In this document: positions 7,010 through 55,961 of the stretch, one piece after another | How positions within the stretch are numbered: position 1 is the stretch's first letter | Layout: the number at the start of each line of letters is the position of its first letter | Assembly (NCBI GenBank): GCA_022822375.1 | Contig: JAJEBU010000126.1 | Coordinates: forward strand, 68,659-132,658 | Source: Dehalococcoidia bacterium | GTDB lineage: Bacteria; Chloroflexota; Dehalococcoidia; Bin125 | Direction: 5' to 3' | DNA length: 64,000 nucleotides | Translations under genes and position numbers: made by a program | The notes under the pieces: generated by a model | Database searches by the model: none | The model's input: the letters and a program-made list of their open reading frames with translations, nothing else | What the model was told of the DNA's origin: nothing

Positions 7010-7088
7010 TGGTGGGCGATACTGGACTTGAACCAGTGACCTCTGCGATGTCAACGCAGCGCTCTAGCCAACTGAGCTAACCGCCCGC
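7010..7088 (-). tRNA. tRNA-Val (anticodon GAC), CCA encoded
   Basis: Reverse complement reads GCGGGCGGTTAGCTCAGTTGGCTAGAGCGCTGCGTTGACATCGCAGAGGTCACTGGTTCAAGTCCAGTATCGCCCACCA. D-arm GCTC/GAGC, anticodon stem CTGCG/CGCAG with loop TTGACAT, T-loop GGTTCAAGTCC, 3' CCA. Confidence 0.85.
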
Positions 7089-7465
7089 ACCGGGCTGCCG
7101 ACGCGGCGTGTATCGACGACGCCGGCTGTTTGTCATCGTATGCCTCGCAGTTCCGCCTGGTCAACGCGCGCCGCCGCCGTCGGTCGCGGCCTGACGAAGA
7201 CGTCTGCGGTAAGATCAGTGTCAACTCGTTGACGTTGTGCGCTGCGTTGGCTAGCTTGCGCCAACGACGTCAGACAGAACCGACCATCGGAGTCGAAGTG
7301 GGCCAAGGCACCTTGCGATCATCTGCAGAGCTGGGCAGCGTGCGGTCAGAGCGTGCGGCGCATGAGCGGTCGCCTTCGACTGTGAGTGAGACTGCGAGTG
7401 TCCGCGCCCGTGTACCATTGGGAGACGCGCTACTGCCGTTGGCACGGCGCGAGACCACCGGTCGC

Positions 7466-7541
<76 letters not shown>

Positions 7542-7615
7542 ACGACAGGTTCGCGAGCGAGGCGGCGCTTCGCTCGGAGCAGATTCTCCACGGGCCGCAG
7601 CGCTCGTCATCCCGC

Positions 7616-7700
7616 GGGGAAGTGTCGGAACTGGCAGACGAGCACGATTTAGGATCGTGTGCCGCAAGGCGTAGGAGTTCGAGTCTCCTCTTCCCCACCA
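7616..7700 (+). tRNA. tRNA-Leu (anticodon TAG), long variable arm, CCA encoded
   Basis: GGGGAAGTGTCGGAACTGGCAGACGAGCACGATTTAGGATCGTGTGCCGCAAGGCGTAGGAGTTCGAGTCTCCTCTTCCCCACCA. Acceptor GGGGAAG/CTTCCCC, anticodon stem CACGA/TCGTG with loop TTTAGGA, class II variable arm, T-loop TTCGAGT. Confidence 0.8.
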
Positions 7701-13433: not shown

Positions 13434-13659
13434 TGGCCGCTCCTTCTTCGTCCGCGTTCATCGACCCTGCGGACACGGTATCGGCTGAGTGTACCTGTCG
13501 CGCGGCTGCGCTATGTCAGCCCTCTGCTCGCCGCTGCCGGTGATAGCATGGGATCGGTCGTGCTAGATGGGGAGCTAGCGGTGCCCTGTACCCGCAATCC
13601 GCTCTAGCGGGGTTGAATTCCTGGGTTGAGGGCGGTGACATGAGAACTACCGACGCCAA

Positions 13660-13800
13660 GTAGTGTTGAAATCTGGGTCCCGCGCGGCGGCCCGCCGTGA
13701 ACCCCGTCAGGTCCGAGAGGAAGCAGCGGTAAGCGGTTGTCAGGTCGGGTGACGCGGGAGTGCCTGGGTGGAGCCGGCTAGCGAAGGCAAGCTCATGCAA
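13660..13800 (+). ncRNA. ffs: Signal recognition particle RNA (4.5S/ffs-type; boundaries approximate)
   Basis: Contains the universally conserved SRP RNA domain IV sequence GUCAGGUCCGAGAGGAAGCAGC (GNRA tetraloop GAGA) at ~13705-13727. The following ...GGUGACGCGGGAGUGCCUGGGUG is colinear with E. coli 4.5S ...GAUGACGCGUGUGCCGGGAUG, and GUGAAC precedes the motif. It lies in a 424-bp gap with only short spurious ORFs. Confidence 0.65.
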
Positions 13801-13856
13801 CCGTTCGATCCTGGGTGCACGGCCGATACCGCGCCACAACGTCACGGACATTCCCG

Positions 13857-26567: not shown

Positions 26568-27134
26568 GCCGTCCTCCAGGGCGCCCCGCAGCAACGCGAG
26601 GCCATCAGGATGACCGCCGGTCAGGGCCGCCATCCTCGACTCGGCCACGCCGCCCAGCCGCCAGAGCGTGGTGAGCAATCGCGCAGCCGCCTGCCACTCG
26701 TCGTCTGACGCGGGCAAGTCATCGAGCGGCGCGTGGCCCCGCGCGAGGATCACAGCCCGGCGTCCATCCGCAGCGTCCGCCTCGGCGCCAAACTCTTCAA
26801 TGACCTGCTCAAACTCATGCTCGGCGTGATCAAGCTCGTTCCGAGCGAGCCGGACCGTCCCATGCACAATGCGAGAGTCGACATCGTAGGGCCGATCATC
26901 GGCCGCAGCGTAGGCGCAGCGCTGCGCGTCCTCGACGTTGCCTTGAAACAGCGACCGCCAGGCAGAGGCAACGAGATCGCCCCGAACATCGACCGCGACG
27001 GCCGGCTCGGCCGCGCTCGTGATCTCATCGATCCGCGCGCCTGCTCGCATCAGACGCTCAGCGAGCCGCAACGACTCGATTGCCGCCCGCTCGCGCTCCG
27101 AGCGTTGAAGTCCCAGGCGGGTCAGCAGGCTCAC
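26553..27134 (-). CDS. hypothetical acidic protein (193 aa)
   Basis: Balanced composition, no recognised motif. Divergent from dinB (start 27193), 58-bp shared upstream region. Confidence 0.5.
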   Translation of the reverse strand: MSLLTRLGLQRSERERAAIESLRLAERLMRAGARIDEITSAAEPAVAVDVRGDLVASAWRSLFQGNVEDAQRCAYAAADDRPYDVDSRIVHGTVRLARNELDHAEHEFEQVIEEFGAEADAADGRRAVILARGHAPLDDLPASDDEWQAAARLLTTLWRLGGVAESRMAALTGGHPDGLALLRGALEDGDGTL

Positions 27135-44323: not shown

Positions 44324-47020
44324 ATGACGACCTCTGAGTCTCCCTGGTTTTCAGCGCACCCCCGCGCGACAGACCCATTGGGCGCCGACGACTGGCTGGA
44401 AACGAACGACTGGATCGACTCCTTGCGCGATGTCGCACGGCGGCGCGGGCCCGACCGCGTCTCGCGGCTGCTGCAGTCACTCCAGATCGAGGCCCAGCGC
44501 GGCGGCATCCGCCTGCCCGTGACATCGCAGACGCCGTATGTCAACACGATCCCCATTGAGCGGCAACCCGCCTATCCCGGCGACCTCGAGCTCGAACGCA
44601 GAATCAAGTCGATCATCCGTTGGAACGCGATGGCGATGGTCGTCGAGGCGAACCAGAACAACCACGGCATCGGTGGGCACATTTCGACCTACGCGTCGGC
44701 GGCGACGCTGTACGAGGTGGGATTCAACCACTTTTTCCGCGGCCAGGACCACCCCAGCGGCGGAGACCTGGTCTACTTCCAGGGGCATTCGGCACCAGGC
44801 ATCTATGCGCGCGGTTATGTCGAGCGCCGACTCGAGCCAGCCCAGCTGCACAAGTTTCGCCAGGAACTCTCCGGCGGACTTCCCTCGTATCCCCATCCGT
44901 GGTTGATGGACCACTATTGGCAGTTCCCCACGGTCTCGATGGGACTGGGGCCGATCCAGGCCATCTACCAGGCGCGATTCATCCGCTACCTCGAGAACCG
45001 CGACCTGTTGCCGCCCACGGATCGCAAGGTCTGGTGCTTCCTCGGCGACGGCGAGACGGACGAACCGGAGTCACTCGGTTCGATCGCGCTCGCATCGCGC
45101 GAAGAGCTGGACAACCTGATCTTCGTCGTCAACTGCAACTTGCAGCGGCTCGATGGTCCGGTGCGCGGCAACGGACAGATCATTCAGGAACTCGAAGCCG
45201 TCTTCCGCGGCGTCGGCTGGAATGTGATCAAGGTGATCTGGGGATCGGAGTGGGACCAGCTGCTCGCGCGAGACGATGAGGGGCTGCTCGTTCAGCGCAT
45301 GGGCGAAGTGGTCGACGGCGAGTATCAGAAGTACACGGTGGCCGGCGGCGGATACATTCGCAAGCACTTCTGGGGCGTTGATCCGCGCCTGCTGAGGATG
45401 GTCGATGACCTCTCCGACGACGCCCTTTGGCGGATGCGTCTGGGCGGACATGACCCGCTCAAAGTCCACGCAGCCTTCCGCGCAGCCAGCGACCATCGCG
45501 GCGCGCCGACGGTCATCCTGGCTCGGACGATCAAGGGTTACGGCCTCGGAGAGGCGGGCGAAGGCCGCAACATCACGCATCAGCAGAAGGAGCTCAACGA
45601 ACGGGAGCTGATGCAGTTCCGCGACCGCTTCGCAATCCCCCTCTCCGACGAAGAGGTGATCGGTGCTCCGCTCTATCGTCCCTCGCCCGACAGTCGAGAG
45701 GCGTTCTACATGTCTGAGCGCCAGACATCATTGGGCGGGCCGGTGCCCGAACGGCGTTCGCCGCCGTCGCCGTTGACCGCGCCGCCAGACGACGCGTTCC
45801 AGGAGTTTCATGAGGGCACGGGCGATCGTGAGGCGTCCACCACAATGGGATTCGTGCGCATGCTGAGCCGGCTCATGCGCGACCGTGAGATCGGCCGTCG
45901 CATCGTCCCGATCGTGCCGGACGAGTCGCGCACCTTCGGCATGGAAGGCATGTTTCGCGAGTTTGGCATCTATGCGTCGACCGGCCAGTTGTACGAACCG
46001 GTCGATTCGGACCGCCTGCTCTTCTACAAGGAATCGCGCGACGGCCAGATTCTTGAAGAGGGCATCACCGAGGCCGGCGCGATGTCGTCGTTCATCGCCG
46101 GCGGTACCGCCTACTCGACGCTGAAGGCGCCGATGATCCCGTTCTTCATCTTCTACTCGATGTTTGGCTTGCAGCGCATTGGCGATCTCGCATTCGCCGC
46201 CGGCGACGCGAGGGCGCGCGGCTTCCTGATCGGCGCCACCGCGGGCCGCACGACCCTGAACGGCGAGGGCCTCCAGCATCAGGATGGACACAGCCACCTC
46301 CTGGCGTCGTCGATTCCCAATCTGGTCTCCTACGATCCGGCGTACACCTACGAGATCGCGGTCATTGTGCAAGAGGGCTTCAGGCGCATGCACGATGAGG
46401 ACGAGAGCGTGTTCTTCTATGTCACCGTCGAGAACGAGGCGTACGCGCAGCCGCCGATGCCCGATTCGGAGCTGGTGCGCGAGGGGATCCTGCGCGGCAT
46501 TTACCAGTTGGCCCCGTGCGATGAACCGCAAGTTCGGCTGCTCGGCAGCGGACCGATCCTGAATGAAGTGCGCCGCGCCCGAGAGATGCTGGAGCACGAT
46601 TACGGCGTTCGCGCCGATGTCTGGTCGGTCACGTCCTACACCGAGCTGCGGCGCGAGGCGCTGCGTACCGACCGCTGGAACCGCATGCATCCGCTGGAAG
46701 AACCGCGCCGTTCCTGGCTGGAGCGTTCGCTGGGAACATCGAGCGCGCCGATCATCGCGGCGAGCGACTACGTCGCAACGCTGCCGGATATGGTCGCCCG
46801 CTGGCTGCCAGGTCCGCTGACGGCGCTGGGCACCGATGGCTTCGGTCGTTCAGACACGCGCGAGGCCCTGCGCGACTTCTTCGAAGTCGACGCGAACTCT
46901 GTGGTCTGGTCGGCCTTGAGCGCACTGGCGCGGCGCGATGAGATCGATGGAGACACGCTGTTGCGCGCGCGCGACACGCTCGGCATCGACCCCGAGCGCC
47001 CCGATCCGATGTTGCAGTAG
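44324..47020 (+). CDS. aceE: Pyruvate dehydrogenase E1 component (homodimeric AceE type)
   Basis: 898 aa. N-terminal ...GGHISTYASAATLYEVGFNHFFRG and the ThDP-binding GDGETDEPES region. Confidence 0.92.
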   Translation: MTTSESPWFSAHPRATDPLGADDWLETNDWIDSLRDVARRRGPDRVSRLLQSLQIEAQRGGIRLPVTSQTPYVNTIPIERQPAYPGDLELERRIKSIIRWNAMAMVVEANQNNHGIGGHISTYASAATLYEVGFNHFFRGQDHPSGGDLVYFQGHSAPGIYARGYVERRLEPAQLHKFRQELSGGLPSYPHPWLMDHYWQFPTVSMGLGPIQAIYQARFIRYLENRDLLPPTDRKVWCFLGDGETDEPESLGSIALASREELDNLIFVVNCNLQRLDGPVRGNGQIIQELEAVFRGVGWNVIKVIWGSEWDQLLARDDEGLLVQRMGEVVDGEYQKYTVAGGGYIRKHFWGVDPRLLRMVDDLSDDALWRMRLGGHDPLKVHAAFRAASDHRGAPTVILARTIKGYGLGEAGEGRNITHQQKELNERELMQFRDRFAIPLSDEEVIGAPLYRPSPDSREAFYMSERQTSLGGPVPERRSPPSPLTAPPDDAFQEFHEGTGDREASTTMGFVRMLSRLMRDREIGRRIVPIVPDESRTFGMEGMFREFGIYASTGQLYEPVDSDRLLFYKESRDGQILEEGITEAGAMSSFIAGGTAYSTLKAPMIPFFIFYSMFGLQRIGDLAFAAGDARARGFLIGATAGRTTLNGEGLQHQDGHSHLLASSIPNLVSYDPAYTYEIAVIVQEGFRRMHDEDESVFFYVTVENEAYAQPPMPDSELVREGILRGIYQLAPCDEPQVRLLGSGPILNEVRRAREMLEHDYGVRADVWSVTSYTELRREALRTDRWNRMHPLEEPRRSWLERSLGTSSAPIIAASDYVATLPDMVARWLPGPLTALGTDGFGRSDTREALRDFFEVDANSVVWSALSALARRDEIDGDTLLRARDTLGIDPERPDPMLQ

Positions 47021-47029
47021 AGGTTCGCC

Positions 47030-48415
47030 ATGACGACCAACGCATCCGATCCCGGAGCCGTGGTTCTGCCCGACCTTGGGGAGGACATTGAAGAGGCCGA
47101 TGTGCTCCAGATCTACGTCTCCGTCGGTGACGTGGTCGTGATCGAACAGCCGCTGATCGAGATTGAGACCGAGAAAGCAACGCTGGACCTGCCCTCGCCA
47201 GTTGGCGGAGCGGTGGTTGCCGTACATGTCAGCAACGGCCAGACGATCCGTCCCGGCGATCTTGTGCTCAGCATTGAGGCCAGCGATCCCCGCGCGTCGG
47301 CGGCGCACGAGCCGAGTGCGACTGCATCCGCGCAAGACGAGCCAGCGCTGGCCCCGCCAACTCCCGCTCCCGAAGCCCCGCCAACTCCTCCAGCCCGAGG
47401 GCGCGATGAGCTGCCCTCCGAAGACATTGGCGATCCGCCTGGCGAACTCCCAGCCGGCTTGCCGTCTGCCGCTCCCGCGCCCTTGCTTGACGGCGAGCCT
47501 GAGGGTCGACCTGTCTTCGCCTCGCCCTCGGCCAGACGGTTTGCGCGCGAGATCGGCGTCGACATTCGCGCGGTCGGCGGCAGCGGACCGGGCGGGCGGA
47601 TCGACTTGGACGACATCAAGCGGCACGCTCGAGAGACGCCACGCGAGGCGCCACAGGCGTCGCATTCAGCGCTGGCGCCAGGGCCGCTGCCAGACTTTTC
47701 GGAGTTCGGCGCGATCGAGCGCGTGCCGATGAGCCGGCTGCGCCGCACCATCAAGCGCAACATGGCCCTGTCGTGGCACGAGGCGCCGCATGTGACGCTG
47801 CACCACACCGCTGACGTCACCGAGCTCGAGCAGGTCCGCCACGACTATCGCGATCGCGCCGAGGAGCTGGGCGGACGGCTGACGATCACGGCCATCCTGC
47901 TCAAGATCGCCGCCGCCGCCTTGCAGGCGCACCCGCACGTCAACAGTTCGCTCGACGCTGAGACCGATGAGTTGATTCTCAAGCGCTACTACCACCTCGG
48001 CGTCGCGGTGGACACGCCGCGCGGACTGGTCGTGCCCGTGATCCGCGACGTCGACAGCAAGAACATCATCGAGCTGTCCGTGGAGCTGACGGACATCTCA
48101 GAGCGCGCGCGGTCGGGCGATCTGGAGCTGCAAGACTTTCGCGGCAGCAGCTTCACCGTGACCAACTTGGGTGGATTGGGCACCGGACACTTCACGCCGA
48201 TCATTCACCACCCCAATACGGCGATCCTGGGCATTGGCCGCGCGGAACGTCGGCCTGTCTGGTCAGAAGGTCTCAGCGACTGGGAACCGCGCAGTATTTT
48301 GCCCTTGTCGTTCACGTTCGACCACCGTGTGATCGACGGCGCGGACGGCGCGCGCTTCATGACCTGGATCGCCGACGTGATTCGCCAGCCGCTGGTGCTG
48401 GCGCTGGGCGGCTAA
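47030..48415 (+). CDS. Dihydrolipoamide acyltransferase E2 component
   Basis: N-terminal lipoyl domain (IEIETEKATLDLPSP), peripheral-subunit-binding domain (SPSARRFAREIGVDI), C-terminal catalytic domain with the DHRVIDGA motif. Confidence 0.92.
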   Translation: MTTNASDPGAVVLPDLGEDIEEADVLQIYVSVGDVVVIEQPLIEIETEKATLDLPSPVGGAVVAVHVSNGQTIRPGDLVLSIEASDPRASAAHEPSATASAQDEPALAPPTPAPEAPPTPPARGRDELPSEDIGDPPGELPAGLPSAAPAPLLDGEPEGRPVFASPSARRFAREIGVDIRAVGGSGPGGRIDLDDIKRHARETPREAPQASHSALAPGPLPDFSEFGAIERVPMSRLRRTIKRNMALSWHEAPHVTLHHTADVTELEQVRHDYRDRAEELGGRLTITAILLKIAAAALQAHPHVNSSLDAETDELILKRYYHLGVAVDTPRGLVVPVIRDVDSKNIIELSVELTDISERARSGDLELQDFRGSSFTVTNLGGLGTGHFTPIIHHPNTAILGIGRAERRPVWSEGLSDWEPRSILPLSFTFDHRVIDGADGARFMTWIADVIRQPLVLALGG

Positions 48416-49885: not shown

Positions 49886-50758
49886 ATGCAGATTCAACTC
49901 GGCGGACAGACTCTCGACGCGACTGATCGCTGCCTGGTCATGGGCATCCTCAACGTCGCGACGGACTCGCCGGTCAGCGAGTCCATCGTGGATGTCCAGG
50001 AAGCGCCGCGCCGCGCCGCGGCGCTGCGCGACGCAGGAGCATCGATCATCGACGTGGGCGCGCAGTCCACGCGGACGGGCGCTGCCGCGGTGCCGCCCGA
50101 ACAAGAGATCGCGAGAGTCGTTCCCGTGGTCGAGATGCTGGTCGGCGAAGGGCACCTCGTTTCCGTCGATACCTGGACGGCGCCGGTGGCGCGGGCGGCC
50201 GTGGCGGCGGGCGCCCATCTGATCAACGACATCACCGGTGCCGCGCCAGAGACCGTGGCTGTCGCGGTCGAGACGACCACGCCGATCGCCGTCATGCATA
50301 TGCGAGGCGAGCCGCAGCGTCACCGCGAAGTGACGCACGAGTATGAGGACGTCGCCGGTGAAGTCCGCGATTGGCTCGGACGCAGAGCGGCTGAGATCGA
50401 AGCGGCAGGCGCACCGTCGGTCTGGATCGATCCCGGTTTCCAGTTCGGACGCGGGCTGACCGACAACCTGCGGCTGTTGCTCGATCTGCCGCAGCTGGCG
50501 AGTTTGGGCTATCCCGTCCTCATTTCGGCGTCCCGCAAGGGGTTTCTGGCCGAGATGCTGGGTCACGGCGAGCTGCGCTCGCATGACGCGCACGGCAAGC
50601 CGGGCATGCTCGAGGCGACGATCGCCTTCAACGTCCTGGCGGCCTGGCTCGGAGCACACGTCGTGCGCGTCCACGACGTGGAAGAGGTGGCGTGGGCGCT
50701 GGAGGTATCGGCGGCGGCCAACACGTTGCGCCGCGCCATGAACGATGCAGCCCGCTGA
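49886..50758 (+). CDS. Dihydropteroate synthase-like pterin-binding protein
   Basis: ...LVMGILNVATDSP..., DVGAQSTRTG, and a C-terminal ...RVHDV pattern of DHPS/pterin-binding TIM barrels. No other folate genes adjacent. Confidence 0.7.
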   Translation: MQIQLGGQTLDATDRCLVMGILNVATDSPVSESIVDVQEAPRRAAALRDAGASIIDVGAQSTRTGAAAVPPEQEIARVVPVVEMLVGEGHLVSVDTWTAPVARAAVAAGAHLINDITGAAPETVAVAVETTTPIAVMHMRGEPQRHREVTHEYEDVAGEVRDWLGRRAAEIEAAGAPSVWIDPGFQFGRGLTDNLRLLLDLPQLASLGYPVLISASRKGFLAEMLGHGELRSHDAHGKPGMLEATIAFNVLAAWLGAHVVRVHDVEEVAWALEVSAAANTLRRAMNDAAR

Positions 50759-51015: not shown

Positions 51016-51067
51016 CGACCGCCGACCAACAGCGACGTCCGCGTTTGACACGCACTTGGAGAGTGGT

Positions 51068-52165
51068 ATGAGCCAGCGACCGCCCGATCCGATTCCGTTC
51101 CCCAGCGACCGCATCCAGGGCGGCGCACCGCCGCCGCAGGCGCCACAGCCGCCCGCTCAACCGTCGGGGCCCGTGATCTACTCAGCGTCGGGCCAACCGA
51201 TGCGACGGGTCAGGCCGCCGTCTGCGCCGCCGCCTCCAGCCCCGGTACCGCTCAACGCCGCACCTCCGCAGGCGGCCGGCGTTGGCGCCCCCGGCGGTCA
51301 GGAACCGGTCGGCTTGCACGGCCACATTGCCGCCGTGATCGACTCGACCGATGCGGACTTTGAGCGGGATGTGATCCAGCGATCACATGAGATGCCTGTG
51401 ATCGTCGACTGCTGGGCGCCGTGGTGCGGGCCGTGCCGCGTGCTGGGACCGATCCTCGAGAAGCTGGCCTACGAGCGCGACGGCCAGTTGCAGTTGGTCA
51501 AGGTCAACACCGATGAGAACCCGCAAGTCGCGCGGGCGTTGCAAGTGGAGGGCATCCCGGCCGTCTTCGCGTTCGCCGGCGGGCAGCTGGTCAACCGCTT
51601 TGTCGGCGCGTTGCCCGAGGAGCAGGTGCGAGCCTTCTTTGACTCGCTGATTCCCTCTGAAGCCGACATCAAGGCGGCAGAGGGCTACCGCATGATGCAG
51701 GAAAACCAGATTCCGATCGCGCGTCTGCATTTCGAGTCAGCGCTCGACGAGGATCCCAACCACGAGATGGCTGGCGTCGGTCTCGCTGCGATCCTGTCGC
51801 GTCTGGGCGAGACGGAGCGCGCCGCCGAGCTCGCTCGCCGCTGGCCCAACCATCCGTTGAGCAAGAGCGTGCTCACGTCAATGGAGCTCGCGGCGGCGCT
51901 GGACGGTCAGGACGCCGGCGCAGTCCGCGCGGCTGCGGCGTCTCACCCGACCGACGCGATGAGCCGCTATCGGCATGGCTGTCTGCTGGCCCTGGAGGGC
52001 CAGATGATGCAGGCGTTGGACGAGATGCTGGAGTCGGTGCGGCTGGATAAATCGGCCGGGGACGAGGCGGCGCGCAAGACGCTGCTCGGCATGTTCGCCA
52101 TGCTCGGCGAGAATGAGCCGGTCGTCGCGGAGTACCGCAAACGGCTGGGTCAGCTGCTTTTCTAG
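51068..52165 (+). CDS. Thioredoxin-domain protein with C-terminal TPR-like domain (YbbN/CnoX-like) and Pro-rich N-terminal extension
   Basis: Trx active site WAPWCGPC, then an alpha-helical TPR-like C-terminus. The ~90-aa N-terminus is Pro/Ala-rich. Confidence 0.82.
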   Translation: MSQRPPDPIPFPSDRIQGGAPPPQAPQPPAQPSGPVIYSASGQPMRRVRPPSAPPPPAPVPLNAAPPQAAGVGAPGGQEPVGLHGHIAAVIDSTDADFERDVIQRSHEMPVIVDCWAPWCGPCRVLGPILEKLAYERDGQLQLVKVNTDENPQVARALQVEGIPAVFAFAGGQLVNRFVGALPEEQVRAFFDSLIPSEADIKAAEGYRMMQENQIPIARLHFESALDEDPNHEMAGVGLAAILSRLGETERAAELARRWPNHPLSKSVLTSMELAAALDGQDAGAVRAAAASHPTDAMSRYRHGCLLALEGQMMQALDEMLESVRLDKSAGDEAARKTLLGMFAMLGENEPVVAEYRKRLGQLLF

Positions 52166-52588: not shown

Positions 52589-54166
52589 ATGCATCCTCCC
52601 ACGACATTCGCATTGCGCGATGCTGACGGCCGCGAGCGGCAGTTCCCGCCCGATGGTCCGGTGTTGCTCGCTCTGGTCAAAGAAGATTGCGACACCTGCA
52701 ATCTGACGCTGCCGCTGCTCGAGAAGGTCCATCAGGCCACCGAAGACGGCCTGGACGTGTGGGTCGCGGTGCAGAAGACCGACGACATCCCCGTCCTGAA
52801 GGAGCGGCACGGCCTGACCATGCCGCTGCTTGACGACGACGCGCTGGACCTGTCCTACGAGACCGACATCGACACCGTGCCGACGCTCTTCCTCTATGAC
52901 GAGCAGCAGAACTGCACGCTGCAGACCTTCGGCTTCGACCGTCACGAGTGGCGGGAGATCGCCGCGGAGTCAATGACGCTCGCCGGCCGTCCTGATGGCG
53001 ACACGCAGATCGAATGGGACGCCCTGCCTGTGCAGCGTCCAGGCTGCGGCGCTCGCAACTACGAGCCGGGCGTCTACGAGCGTCTGCAAGCGTTGAAGAG
53101 CGGCGATCTGCTCTCGCGCCTGGTCGATCTGGCCGCGTCCGACGACATCTACGAGTTTATGTACGAGCAGGGCTACACCGACGGCTTCCCGGTCGTACCG
53201 CCCACACGGGAGCGCGTCTGGAAGATGCTGCAAGGCACGCAGCGCGACCCGCAGGACGAAGTCGCCGTGATGCCGCCCAACCTGGCGCCGATCACGGTCG
53301 AGAAGATCGCCATCAACGCCGTCATGGCCGGCGCGAAGCCCGAGTATCTGCCCTCGATCATCACCCTCGTCGAGATCGCCTGCACAGAGACGTTCAACAT
53401 TCACGGCGTGCTCGCGACGACGATGGGCGCGACGCCGGTCGGCATCTTCAACGGTCCGATCCGTGACAGGATCGGGATGAACTACCTGCACGGCGCATTG
53501 GGCTCGGGCAATCGGGCCAACGCGTCGATTGGCCGCGCGCTGCGTCTCTGTGCGCGCAATGTCGGCGGCAGCCTGCCAGGCGGAACCGACCGCGCCACTC
53601 AGGGAGGCCCGCATCGCCTGACGATGAACTTTGCCGAGAATGAGGCTGCGAGCCCATGGGCATCGCTCGCGGTCGAGCGCGGTTTCGAGCCGACCGACGA
53701 TGTGGCCACCCTGATGGCGATGTCGGGCGGTCCCGCGACCGTCGCCGACGAACGAGCCCGCGACGGACGCGCCTTGGCCGGAACGCTGGCCGCGTCGATG
53801 TCTTGCATGCAAGATCCCAAATCGCCCATGGTCGACACATTGGTCGTGTTGTCGCCCGATCACGCGGGCATCTTCGGACGTTCAGGCTGGTCGAAAGATG
53901 ATGTGCGCGAGTGCATCATCGAGGAAACGTCGATCCCGCTGCACATGCGCCTGCGCTCGGACGACGCCGGTTGCGGTCTGCCGCCGAGCATCGTCGAACA
54001 GTTCGGCGGCGAGGCGGCGCTCGACATGCCGATCGCCAAGTTCCGCGACAAATCCAACATCATCCTCGTCGTCGCCGGTTCCTCGGCGGCGAAGTTCTCG
54101 ACCATTCTGGGCGGCTGGGCCGGCGGCGCATACTCGATGCCGGCGAGCAGCAAGATCGGCGTCTGA
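52589..54166 (+). CDS. Fusion protein: N-terminal thioredoxin-fold (TlpA/AhpC-like, CxxC = CDTC) domain + C-terminal uncharacterised ~370-aa domain X (paralog of 54813..55961)
   Basis: N-terminal ...RQFPPDGPVLLALVKEDCDTCNLTLPLLEKV... is a redox-active Trx-fold. The C-terminal domain carries DGFPVVPPTRERV, ITVEKIAINAVMAGAKPEY, GSGNRANASIGRALRL and NVGGSLPG motifs shared with the paralog. Confidence 0.8.
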   Translation: MHPPTTFALRDADGRERQFPPDGPVLLALVKEDCDTCNLTLPLLEKVHQATEDGLDVWVAVQKTDDIPVLKERHGLTMPLLDDDALDLSYETDIDTVPTLFLYDEQQNCTLQTFGFDRHEWREIAAESMTLAGRPDGDTQIEWDALPVQRPGCGARNYEPGVYERLQALKSGDLLSRLVDLAASDDIYEFMYEQGYTDGFPVVPPTRERVWKMLQGTQRDPQDEVAVMPPNLAPITVEKIAINAVMAGAKPEYLPSIITLVEIACTETFNIHGVLATTMGATPVGIFNGPIRDRIGMNYLHGALGSGNRANASIGRALRLCARNVGGSLPGGTDRATQGGPHRLTMNFAENEAASPWASLAVERGFEPTDDVATLMAMSGGPATVADERARDGRALAGTLAASMSCMQDPKSPMVDTLVVLSPDHAGIFGRSGWSKDDVRECIIEETSIPLHMRLRSDDAGCGLPPSIVEQFGGEAALDMPIAKFRDKSNIILVVAGSSAAKFSTILGGWAGGAYSMPASSKIGV

Positions 54167-54228: not shown

Positions 54229-54759
54229 ATGGTTACGCAGATCCTCGACCCGACCGACGAACGAGTGCCGATCAAGCGATCCCTCACGCCGCGCCCAGAA
54301 GCGCTGCATGGGACGATCGCCCTGCTCGACATCTCCAAGCCGCGTGGCGACAAGTTCCTCGACCGACTCGAACAGCTGCTGCACGAGCGGGCGCCGGGCG
54401 TCGAGACCCGCCGCTTCATGAAGCCGACCGTCGCCAAGCCGGCGCCCGAGCCGATCAAACAAGCGATCCTGGAGGAATGCGACTTCGTCATCGAAGCGCT
54501 GGCTGATTGAGGATCCTGCACGACGTGCAGTGTGCACGACACCGTCTTCTTCGAACTGCAGGGCAAGCCCTCGGTCTTCGTCGCCACCTCTGAGTTCATC
54601 AAGGCCGCCAGCCACCAGGCCGAGCGGCTCGGACTCGAAGAGGTGCGGCGCGTCTTCATTCCGCATCCGATGCAGGACCGCACCGATGCAGAGATGCATG
54701 AACATGCCGAGCGCTTCGTAGACGAGATCCTCGACACCTTGATGGCGCCCGTCGAGTAA
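54229..54759 (+). CDS. UGSC-family selenoprotein (176 aa) with in-frame TGA = selenocysteine at 54508..54510
   Basis: ORFs 54229..54510 and 54532..54759 are in the same frame (both = 1 mod 3) and separated by one TGA. Read-through gives ...FVIEALAD-U-GSCTTCSVHDTVFFELQGKPSVF..., i.e. the eponymous U-G-S-C motif immediately followed by a second Cys pair (UxxCxxC). Coding-like composition continues past the TGA, and a hairpin follows it. Confidence 0.8.
54516..54538 (+). promoter_or_regulatory. Candidate bacterial SECIS hairpin(s) downstream of the Sec-UGA
   Basis: Overlapping perfect palindromes: CTGCAC-GAC-GTGCAG (54516-54530, begins 6 nt after UGA) and CGTGCA-GUG-UGCACG (54524-54538, begins 14 nt after UGA, apical loop GUG containing G and U as in bSECIS). 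Confidence 0.55.
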
Positions 54760-54812
54760 CGGCGAACGGCCTGCCGCCGTTCGAGCCTCCCGATCTGGAC
54801 AGAGGTCAGCCT

Positions 54813-55961
54813 GTGGCGTCCCAGCAATCGAGTGACTATGCGGCGAGCTCGCCGACGGTGGCCAACCCGCATGCGCGACTGATCGACATCGCCGACCACG
54901 ACGATGTCCATGAGTTCATGTTCGACCAGGGCATCACCGACGGTCTGCCGGTGGTGCCGCCGACGCGCGAACGGGTCGACCGCATGCTTGCGGCGTCGCC
55001 CGAGCATTGGAACGATCCCAGCGCAGAGATCGCGAAGCTGCCACCGAACTATGGACCGCTCACGGTGGAGAAGGCTGCCATCAACGCCGTCATGGCGGGC
55101 TGTGCGCCGTCCTTCTTCCCGACCGTGCTGGCGTCGATCGAGGCAGCGGCCGATCCGCGCTTTCCACTTCACGGTTCGATCGCCACGACGGCAGGCCTGG
55201 CCCCGTTGATGCTCGTCAACGGACCCGTCCGCGAGCAGATTGGGATGAACTGGGGCCTCAACGCGCTTGGCCAGGGCAACCGCGCCAACTCGACACTGGG
55301 GCGCGCGTTGCGGCTGATGCTGCGCAACGTCGGCGGCGCGGTGCCCGGCGAGATCGAGCAAGCCATCCAGGGCGGCGGACACAAGTGGACCCTCTCCTAC
55401 GCCGAAGACGAGGACACATCGCCGTGGGACCCCTTCCACGTCGAGCACGGCTGGAATCCTGATGACAGCGTGGTCTCGCTGATGGCCACGACCGGCGGGC
55501 CGCGCGTCTGCATCGATCAGACCAGCCGCACGGCGCGGGCGCTGACCGGATCCATCGCCATGGCATTTCAACAGGTGGTCAAGCCGCGCGGACAGGTCTC
55601 GCCGACAATGTTCGTCGTCTCGCCCGAGCACGCTGACGTCTACCGTGCGGATGGTTGGACCAAAGAGAACATCCGCGAGGCGATCATGGAGTTCACTGCT
55701 CTGCCGCTGCGCGATCGCCTGGCCTCACCAACACTGGGCGGCGGTATCAACGAGTACGCGCCACAGCAGTACGGCCTGACGGAAGAGCAGCTCGACCTCC
55801 CGATGTCTAAAGTGGCGCATCCGTCGTTCATCCAAATCACCGTCGCCGGCAGCCATGCGGGGAAATGGACGAGCATCTACCAGGGCATCTTCGGCGACGG
55901 CGATCCGACGCAGCCGCCGCCCGGCCCGTTCGTCCCGCCCGCTGCCCGTGTGCGCTCCTGA
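54813..55961 (+). CDS. Uncharacterised domain-X protein (382 aa), paralog of the C-terminal domain of 52589..54166
   Basis: Shares FMFDQGITDGLPVVPPTRERVDRML, LTVEKAAINAVMAGCAPSF, GQGNRANSTLGRALRLMLRNVGGAVPG and the C-terminal ...ITVAGSHAGKW block with the upstream fusion protein. GTG start. Confidence 0.78.
   Translation: MASQQSSDYAASSPTVANPHARLIDIADHDDVHEFMFDQGITDGLPVVPPTRERVDRMLAASPEHWNDPSAEIAKLPPNYGPLTVEKAAINAVMAGCAPSFFPTVLASIEAAADPRFPLHGSIATTAGLAPLMLVNGPVREQIGMNWGLNALGQGNRANSTLGRALRLMLRNVGGAVPGEIEQAIQGGGHKWTLSYAEDEDTSPWDPFHVEHGWNPDDSVVSLMATTGGPRVCIDQTSRTARALTGSIAMAFQQVVKPRGQVSPTMFVVSPEHADVYRADGWTKENIREAIMEFTALPLRDRLASPTLGGGINEYAPQQYGLTEEQLDLPMSKVAHPSFIQITVAGSHAGKWTSIYQGIFGDGDPTQPPPGPFVPPAARVRS

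Follow-up and report, generated by a model that had tools for sequence, protein, structure and literature searches.

A predicted bacterial SECIS element in the coding region of a UGSC-family selenoprotein gene from a Dehalococcoidia-like genome

The DNA described here is a stretch of 64,000 nucleotides (the window), and it contains a UGSC-family selenoprotein gene with an in-frame UGA codon. A short hairpin that begins 14 nt after this UGA, designated hairpin 2 (54524-54538, forward strand), is very probably the bacterial SECIS element of the selenoprotein mRNA, with a probability of about 0.88 as judged from comparative sequence analysis. The original prediction had placed a candidate bacterial SECIS at this site and had preferred the second of two overlapping hairpins, and the pairing of the stem, the loop, the synonymous sites and the contrast with cysteine-containing (Cys-form) homologues all agree with that choice. 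The synonymous-site profile and the Cys-form contrast carry most of the weight.

Features of the UGSC-family gene

The gene is located at 54229-54759 on the forward strand, with an ATG start codon at 54229, the in-frame UGA at 54508-54510 and a TAA stop codon at 54757-54759, and its product has 176 residues, with Sec predicted at residue 94. The open reading frame 54229-54510 ends at the TGA, and in the read-through translation the same frame runs on to the TAA at 54757-54759. With cysteine placed at the position of the stop, the 176-residue product matched NCBIfam NF041046, “UGSC family (seleno)protein”, at 154.2 bits (cutoff 125), and Pfam PF24696 (UGSC) at 151.8 bits (cutoff 25), the Pfam match extending across the UGA and taking in profile positions 1-171 of 172. 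The motif in the window protein is ALAD-U-GSC, the UGA being the codon for the U of the U-G-S-C motif, and from 54508 the window reads TGA GGA TCC TGC ACG ACG TGC AGT GTG CAC GAC. A protein search with the UGSC product returned mostly fragments of 96-100 aa ending in ...EALAD, together with two full-length Cys forms; the fragments are UGSC homologues mis-called at the same TGA.

UGSC-containing selenoproteins are a known, abundant family of unknown function (PMC2398784, PMC1976440, PMC13188914). The GOS data contained 255 Sec and 21 Cys forms of the family (Zhang and Gladyshev, PMC2398784), and the Olavius symbiont dataset contained a single UGSC member with a strong predicted SECIS (PMC1976440). 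The window gene encodes a full-length member with the U-G-S-C motif, and there are no differences from the family at this level. A published description of the SECIS of the UGSC family was not found in the literature examined, and a PDB sequence search with the UGSC protein and its neighbour gave nothing significant.

Homologue sample and numbering

A GTDB genome scan gave at least 472 genome matches, from which 80 loci were taken, all with TGA at the same column. These loci span Dehalococcoidia and other Chloroflexota, Gamma- and Alphaproteobacteria, Myxococcota, Binatia and others. The proteins of loci L001-L007 are 94-97 % identical in amino acid sequence to the window UGSC protein, and the window is assigned to a Dehalococcoidia-like genome on the basis of these closely matching MAGs. 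A metagenome scan added 77 TGA forms and three Cys forms, and two full-length Cys proteins were traced back to their contigs, which brought the total of fetched loci to 162. The Sec column holds TGA in 158 sequences (the window and 157 of the 162 fetched loci) and TGC or TGT in five homologues. The 158 Sec-form sequences, including that of the window, comprise 143 distinct 78-nt segments, and the Cys forms number five. Nucleotides are numbered with the U of the UGA as nt 1. The first structural comparison used 79 genome sequences and the extended comparison used the 143 distinct Sec-form sequences.

Two overlapping hairpins downstream of the UGA

The segment 54511-54540 reads GGATCCTGCACGACGTGCAGTGTGCACGAC and contains two nested perfect 6-bp palindromes 3' of the Sec codon, both of which are exact and lie where they had originally been reported. 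Hairpin 1 (54516-54530, forward strand) starts 6 nt after the UGA and is formed by CUGCAC at 54516-54521, the loop GAC at 54522-54524 and GUGCAG at 54525-54530. Hairpin 2, the putative SECIS core on the same strand, is formed by CGUGCA at 54524-54529 (nt 17-22), the loop GUG at 54530-54532 (nt 23-25) and a 3' arm, UGCACG, at 54533-54538 (nt 26-31). The two hairpins share 54525-54530 and are therefore mutually exclusive.

In the window sequence alone, the hairpins are not beyond chance. Folding of 54505-54560, which had been suggested as a check on the original prediction, was carried out and gave a minimum free energy (MFE) no better than that of dinucleotide shuffles (z = 0.32), and the z-score for 54480-54600 was 0.71. 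A perfect 6-bp hairpin with a loop of 3-9 nt, beginning 8-21 nt downstream, is found at 4.7 % of all positions in the window. Rfam gave no match, whether at gathering score for the whole window or at E <= 10 for 54450-54620. Support for hairpin 2 comes only from the comparison with homologues.

The weak single-sequence signal, the frequency of such hairpins in the window and the splitting of homologues by gene callers at the TGA into fragments of 96-100 aa would all fit a chance hairpin next to a TGA that is a genuine stop codon or a pseudogene lesion, with no recoding. This explanation is extremely unlikely. The TGA is present in the 158 sequences across phyla, the protein is conserved on both sides of it and one Pfam domain spans it, cysteine fills the same column in homologues without the TGA, and the synonymous constraint described below is confined to the hairpin. 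The Pfam span, the conservation of the TGA, the Cys forms and the synonymous constraint effectively refute the chance-hairpin and genuine-stop reading.

Pairing and covariation of hairpin 2

The RNAalifold consensus of the 79 genome sequences contained hairpin 2 as the only helix downstream of the UGA. Hairpin 2 was paired in 100 % of the cells of this alignment, with pair 18-30 present as GC in 54 sequences, GU in 23 and AU in 2. A comparison with UGSC homologues had also been proposed with the original prediction, and it showed that the stem pairs throughout the 143 distinct Sec forms and that compensatory changes are present. In this extended set pair 18-30 is GC in 99 sequences, GU in 41, AU in 2 and CG in 1, and is unpaired in none; pair 19-29 is UA in 142 and UG in 1; pair 22-26 is AU in 140, GU in 1 and AC in 2; and C17-G31 is paired in 143 of 143, with a bulge in none. 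The combination ACA...CAT occurs in L031 (Chloroflexi) and L076 (Alphaproteobacteria) as rare independent variants. The peptide of L160 is altered to U-GSCVSCGLRD, and the helix is kept through C18-G30, U19-G29 and G22-U26, with a GUC loop.

When the mixed alignment (A5) was compared with 500 shuffles, none reached the observed pairing or covariation score, and slid registers all collapsed. An all-against-all column pairing scan gave no further covarying helix. Since five of the six stem pairs are invariant or nearly so, most of the covariation signal comes from pair 18-30 and from L160.

Synonymous-site constraint and loop bases

A codon alignment of 149 distinct Sec-form genes was used to compare the synonymous entropy of each majority-residue column with that expected from the codon usage pooled over these genes. 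Observed-to-expected entropy ratios were 0.43-1.26 at about 105 conserved codon columns, with the exception of two places. The first is codons +5 to +8 after the UGA, with ratios of 0.09, 0, 0 and 0, where Thr is encoded by ACG in 98 %, Cys by TGC in 100 %, Ser by AGT in 100 % (148/148) and Val by GTG in 100 % of cases; the second is codon +10, with a ratio of 0.36. The share of AGT among Ser codons elsewhere in the same genes is 4 %. There is no such constraint at codons +1 to +4 (0.89-1.23), and the 5' arm of hairpin 1 falls entirely within them. The third positions at nt 18, 21, 24 and 27 are frozen, and nt 30 changes only in a pair-compatible manner. The only frozen synonymous stretch of the gene coincides with hairpin 2.

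The loop bases G23 and U24 (54530-54531, forward strand), the predicted SelB contact, do not vary in any of the 143 distinct Sec-form sequences, and U24 is a synonymous site (AGT versus AGC or TCN). Because U24 and G27 lie outside hairpin 1, their invariance is explained by hairpin 2 alone, through its loop and its 3' arm.

Cysteine-containing homologues

The hairpin is absent from three of the Cys forms (L145, L152 and L154), in which C-GSCTSCSTHD is encoded with the codons TCC, TCG/AGC and ACC; nt 11-40 of these loci fold with an MFE between -1.7 and -4.3 kcal/mol, compared with a mean of -9.6 kcal/mol in the Sec forms. In a fourth Cys form (L162) the hairpin is degenerate, with four pairs left and the GU loop absent. 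The fifth (L161; TGT; 947-1486, protein P0001) keeps the whole hairpin, including the rare AGT and TCG codons, which may be a fossil SECIS left after a recent Sec-to-Cys change. The absence of the hairpin from three of the five Cys forms and its degeneration in a fourth indicate that the element travels with the TGA and not with the peptide.

These sequences also bear on whether the conserved palindrome could have a role unrelated to Sec decoding, for instance as a protein-binding site at the DNA level or as an mRNA stability or pause element. The core does hold the DNA palindrome GTGCAC, and most stem positions are invariant and not covarying, as such a role might produce. A role of this kind is nevertheless very unlikely, because the element is tied to the TGA and the three Cys forms that have lost the hairpin still keep the C-S-x-H-D peptide, with the fourth form degenerated as described. 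The compensatory changes, including the flip from G-C to C-G in L160, keep the pairing rather than the sequence, the invariant G23 and U24 are in the loop and outside the symmetry of the palindrome, and both the position and the loop match the SECIS rules. A SECIS function for hairpin 2 is the reading preferred here.

Protein P0001 is 51 % identical to the window UGSC protein and was modelled with AlphaFold2 (pLDDT 87.5, pTM 0.83). The model has a flavodoxin-like alternating beta/alpha fold in which the Sec/Cys residue is at the end of strand 3, before a helix. Its best PDB matches (TM <= 0.52) were dipicolinate synthase B, flavodoxins and lumazine synthase, and as these matches are generic the fold yields no specific functional clue.

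Hairpin 1 and possible lower stems

Hairpin 1 is probably incidental and a by-product of the Cys-Thr codons. The UGCAC of its 5' arm duplicates the 3' arm of hairpin 2 and corresponds to the Cys-Thr codons TGY-ACN, with entropy ratios of 1.23 and 0.89. Hairpin 1 (-7.5 kcal/mol) and hairpin 2 (-7.4 kcal/mol) are practically equal in energy. Folded in full context, 103 of the 143 homologues adopted hairpin 2 at the MFE and 14 adopted hairpin 1, and the ensemble probabilities in the window are approximately 0.5 for hairpin 2 and 0.25 for hairpin 1. The GAC loop of hairpin 1 is 11 nt from the UGA, which fails the spacing of the bacterial SECIS (bSECIS) model described below, and the G[G|U] loop pattern also fails.

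It is conceivable that the function lies in hairpin 1 or in switching between the two hairpins. In the switch version, the 5' arm of the SECIS would be tied up in hairpin 1 on free mRNA until an approaching ribosome opens hairpin 1 a few codons ahead of the UGA, and the SelB-binding hairpin would be presented only co-translationally. The equal energies of the two hairpins, the ability of the inner five pairs of hairpin 1 to form in nearly all homologues (95.8 % of cells), its place as the MFE form in 14 sequences and its ensemble probability in the window are all consistent with this view. It is nonetheless decidedly unlikely that hairpin 1 has such a function, since the synonymous sites of its 5' arm vary freely, and every variant is either wobble-compatible or pair-breaking, so that selection for pairing is not indicated. 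The outer pair is broken in 18 of the 79 genome sequences, and pair 14-18 is broken in L031 and L076 (the only such cases among the 79) and in L160, in all three of which hairpin 2 is compensated. A functional hairpin 1 would also leave the invariance of U24 and G27 unexplained, in addition to its failure in SECIS spacing and loop pattern.

A longer imperfect stem combining both palindromes had been regarded as possible, and this idea was rejected; the arms compete for nt 18-22, and the RNAalifold consensus retains hairpin 2 alone. A lower helix specific to the window, between nt 2-7, which take in G and A of the UGA, and nt 37-42, was likewise rejected, being paired in 55.7 % across homologues and not conserved. 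A possible weak 3-bp lower stem (54520-54545, forward strand) would pair A13-C14-G15 (54520-54522) with C36-G37-U38 (54543-54545). Among the 79 sequences, pair 13-38 is present in 60 and pair 14-37 in 57, and pair 15-36 is CG in 23 and GC in 13. The five pairs of a lower stem between nt 11-15 and nt 36-40 are paired in 66 % overall and covary in some clades only. Any lower stem flanking hairpin 2 is therefore clade-dependent.

Comparison with known SECIS elements

The bSECIS model (bSECISearch, Zhang and Gladyshev; reviewed in PMC13188914) specifies a loop of 3-9 nt and a stem of 4-16 bp. It places a G in the first two loop positions, typically as N1-G-[G|U]-N-N2 with N1 and N2 paired, and requires a distance of 16-37 nt from the UGA to the apical loop and an MFE <= -7.5 kcal/mol (PMC13188914). 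As in the model, hairpin 2 closely follows the Sec UGA and is part of the coding sequence, and its 6-bp stem with a 3-nt loop (or 5 bp with a 5-nt loop) is within the permitted sizes. The loop pattern fits as A22-G23-U24-G25-U26. Bacterial SECIS spacing and a G/U-containing apical loop had been ascribed to the second hairpin from the start, and this is upheld by the distance of 19 nt (nt 4-22) from the UGA to the loop, within 16-37, and by the invariance of G23 and U24. The hairpin 2 core, at -7.4 kcal/mol, is marginally weaker than the threshold of -7.5 kcal/mol. The MFE of a 48-nt segment is -11.8 kcal/mol and is formed with hairpin 1, and the homologue mean for nt 11-40 is the -9.6 kcal/mol given above.

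The 17-nt stem-loop that makes up the minimal SECIS of Escherichia coli fdhF spans nt 15-31 and is separated from the UGA by 11 nt; U17 is bulged, and G23 and U24 are loop bases (PMC8659212). The fdhF sequence was confirmed in 5413 E. coli genomes at >= 99 % identity, and was 100 % identical under the fdhF annotation. Hairpin 2 has G23 and U24 at the same distance from the UGA as fdhF, and U26-G27-C28-A29-C30 is identical and in register; both elements end at nt 31, and an A-U pair closes the loop in both. There are also differences. U17 is bulged in fdhF, whereas C17 of the window is paired and the bulge is absent in 143 homologues. The window family has a 3-nt loop, GUN, which becomes AGUNU on opening of the A-U pair, compared with the 4-nt GGUC of fdhF, and the window stem starts at nt 17 (13-nt spacer) rather than at nt 15 (11-nt spacer). 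A conserved lower helix including the UGA is absent from the UGSC element. By analogy, the window element would work like the fdhF element and is not a strict copy of it.

A group of homologues with U16 (within L081-L160; Ser, not Thr, at codon +5) has a stem of 8 bp, with U16-A32 paired in 47 of 47 and G15-C33 in 42 of 47. Like that of E. coli fdhF, the stem of this U16 clade begins at nt 15. In the clade of the window, A16 is opposite A32 and always mismatched.

Proposed mechanism of UGA decoding

SelB-GTP carrying Sec-tRNA(Sec) would bind the apical part of hairpin 2 via the exposed G23 and U24. With the UGA (54508-54510) in the A site, the mRNA channel would keep the first ~10-12 nt after the UGA single-stranded, and this would melt the 5' arm of the competing hairpin 1. 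Hairpin 2 would remain at the channel entrance, and the tethered SelB would deliver Sec-tRNA in competition with release factor 2. The ribosome would then unwind hairpin 2 as it translates Thr-Cys-Ser-Val-His-Asp. The SelB binding, the ribosome geometry and the competition with release factor 2 are inferred from established knowledge of the E. coli system. When at least 10 nt after the U of the UGA were forced to be single-stranded in folding, the MFE structure was hairpin 2.

Two more speculative extensions, a ribosome-operated switch between hairpins 1 and 2 and, in a milder form, a portable SECIS in the fdhF register that would be recognised by the SelB of very distant bacteria, are considered unlikely.

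Gene neighbourhood and other features of the window

The ORF at 52589-54166 (forward strand) encodes 525 aa with a weakly thioredoxin-like N-terminus (CDTC motif) and a C-terminal domain of ~340 aa, for which no match was found in Pfam, NCBIfam or PDB sequences. Using tblastn with the 525-aa ORF and its paralog, matches were found in 126 of the 162 fetched loci, across phyla. In 21 inspected loci a homologue of the 525-aa ORF adjoins the UGSC gene, being directly upstream in 20 of the 21, and its product seems to be a conserved and uncharacterised partner of this selenoprotein. The paralog, at 54813-55961 (forward strand), is a 382-aa protein that is 46 % identical over 341 aa to the C-terminal domain of the partner. 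Among the inspected loci, copies of this downstream paralog were present in close relatives only (two in L001, one in L007).

An 8-bp inverted repeat, CGAACGGC-CTGCC-GCCGTTCG, is located at 54763-54783 (forward strand), 4 nt after the stop codon of the UGSC gene; a T-run is absent downstream of it, and a terminator scan gave no call. Approximately 400 nt upstream of the partner gene, 51056-52165 (forward strand) encodes a protein with thioredoxin and TPR_20 domains, and genes for pyruvate dehydrogenase E1 and E2 are located farther upstream at 44324-48415. The ordinary features of the window include a bacterial large SRP RNA at 13558-13822 (forward strand, 169.6 bits) and tRNA-Val, tRNA-Lys and tRNA-Leu at 7010-7700. 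No tRNA-Sec, SelB-type GTPase motif or sel genes among the scanned neighbours were found within the 64-kb window.

A crude scan of the window for an in-frame TGA followed by a SECIS-like hairpin gave 12 further candidates. The flagged TGAs at 26706, 59774 and 61043 (forward strand) and at 50322 and 15833 (reverse strand) have GU- or GG-loop hairpins 16-37 nt downstream and stop-free flanks. The candidates at 26706 and 15833 were rejected, as their correct-frame translation looks like an off-frame artefact of GC-rich DNA.

Conclusions

As a predicted SECIS, hairpin 2 is an ordinary, well-supported case of a known mechanism, and it leaves the knowledge of Sec decoding unchanged. The region 54229-54759 is one selenoprotein gene and not two short ORFs, and in many public annotations its homologues are divided at the TGA. 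The putative recoding signal is narrowed to 15 nt, and the predicted UGSC SECIS, an RNA element encoded within four codons of a conserved peptide, is almost invariant across phyla. This comparative picture is useful for the annotation of UGSC genes and for the design of expression constructs.
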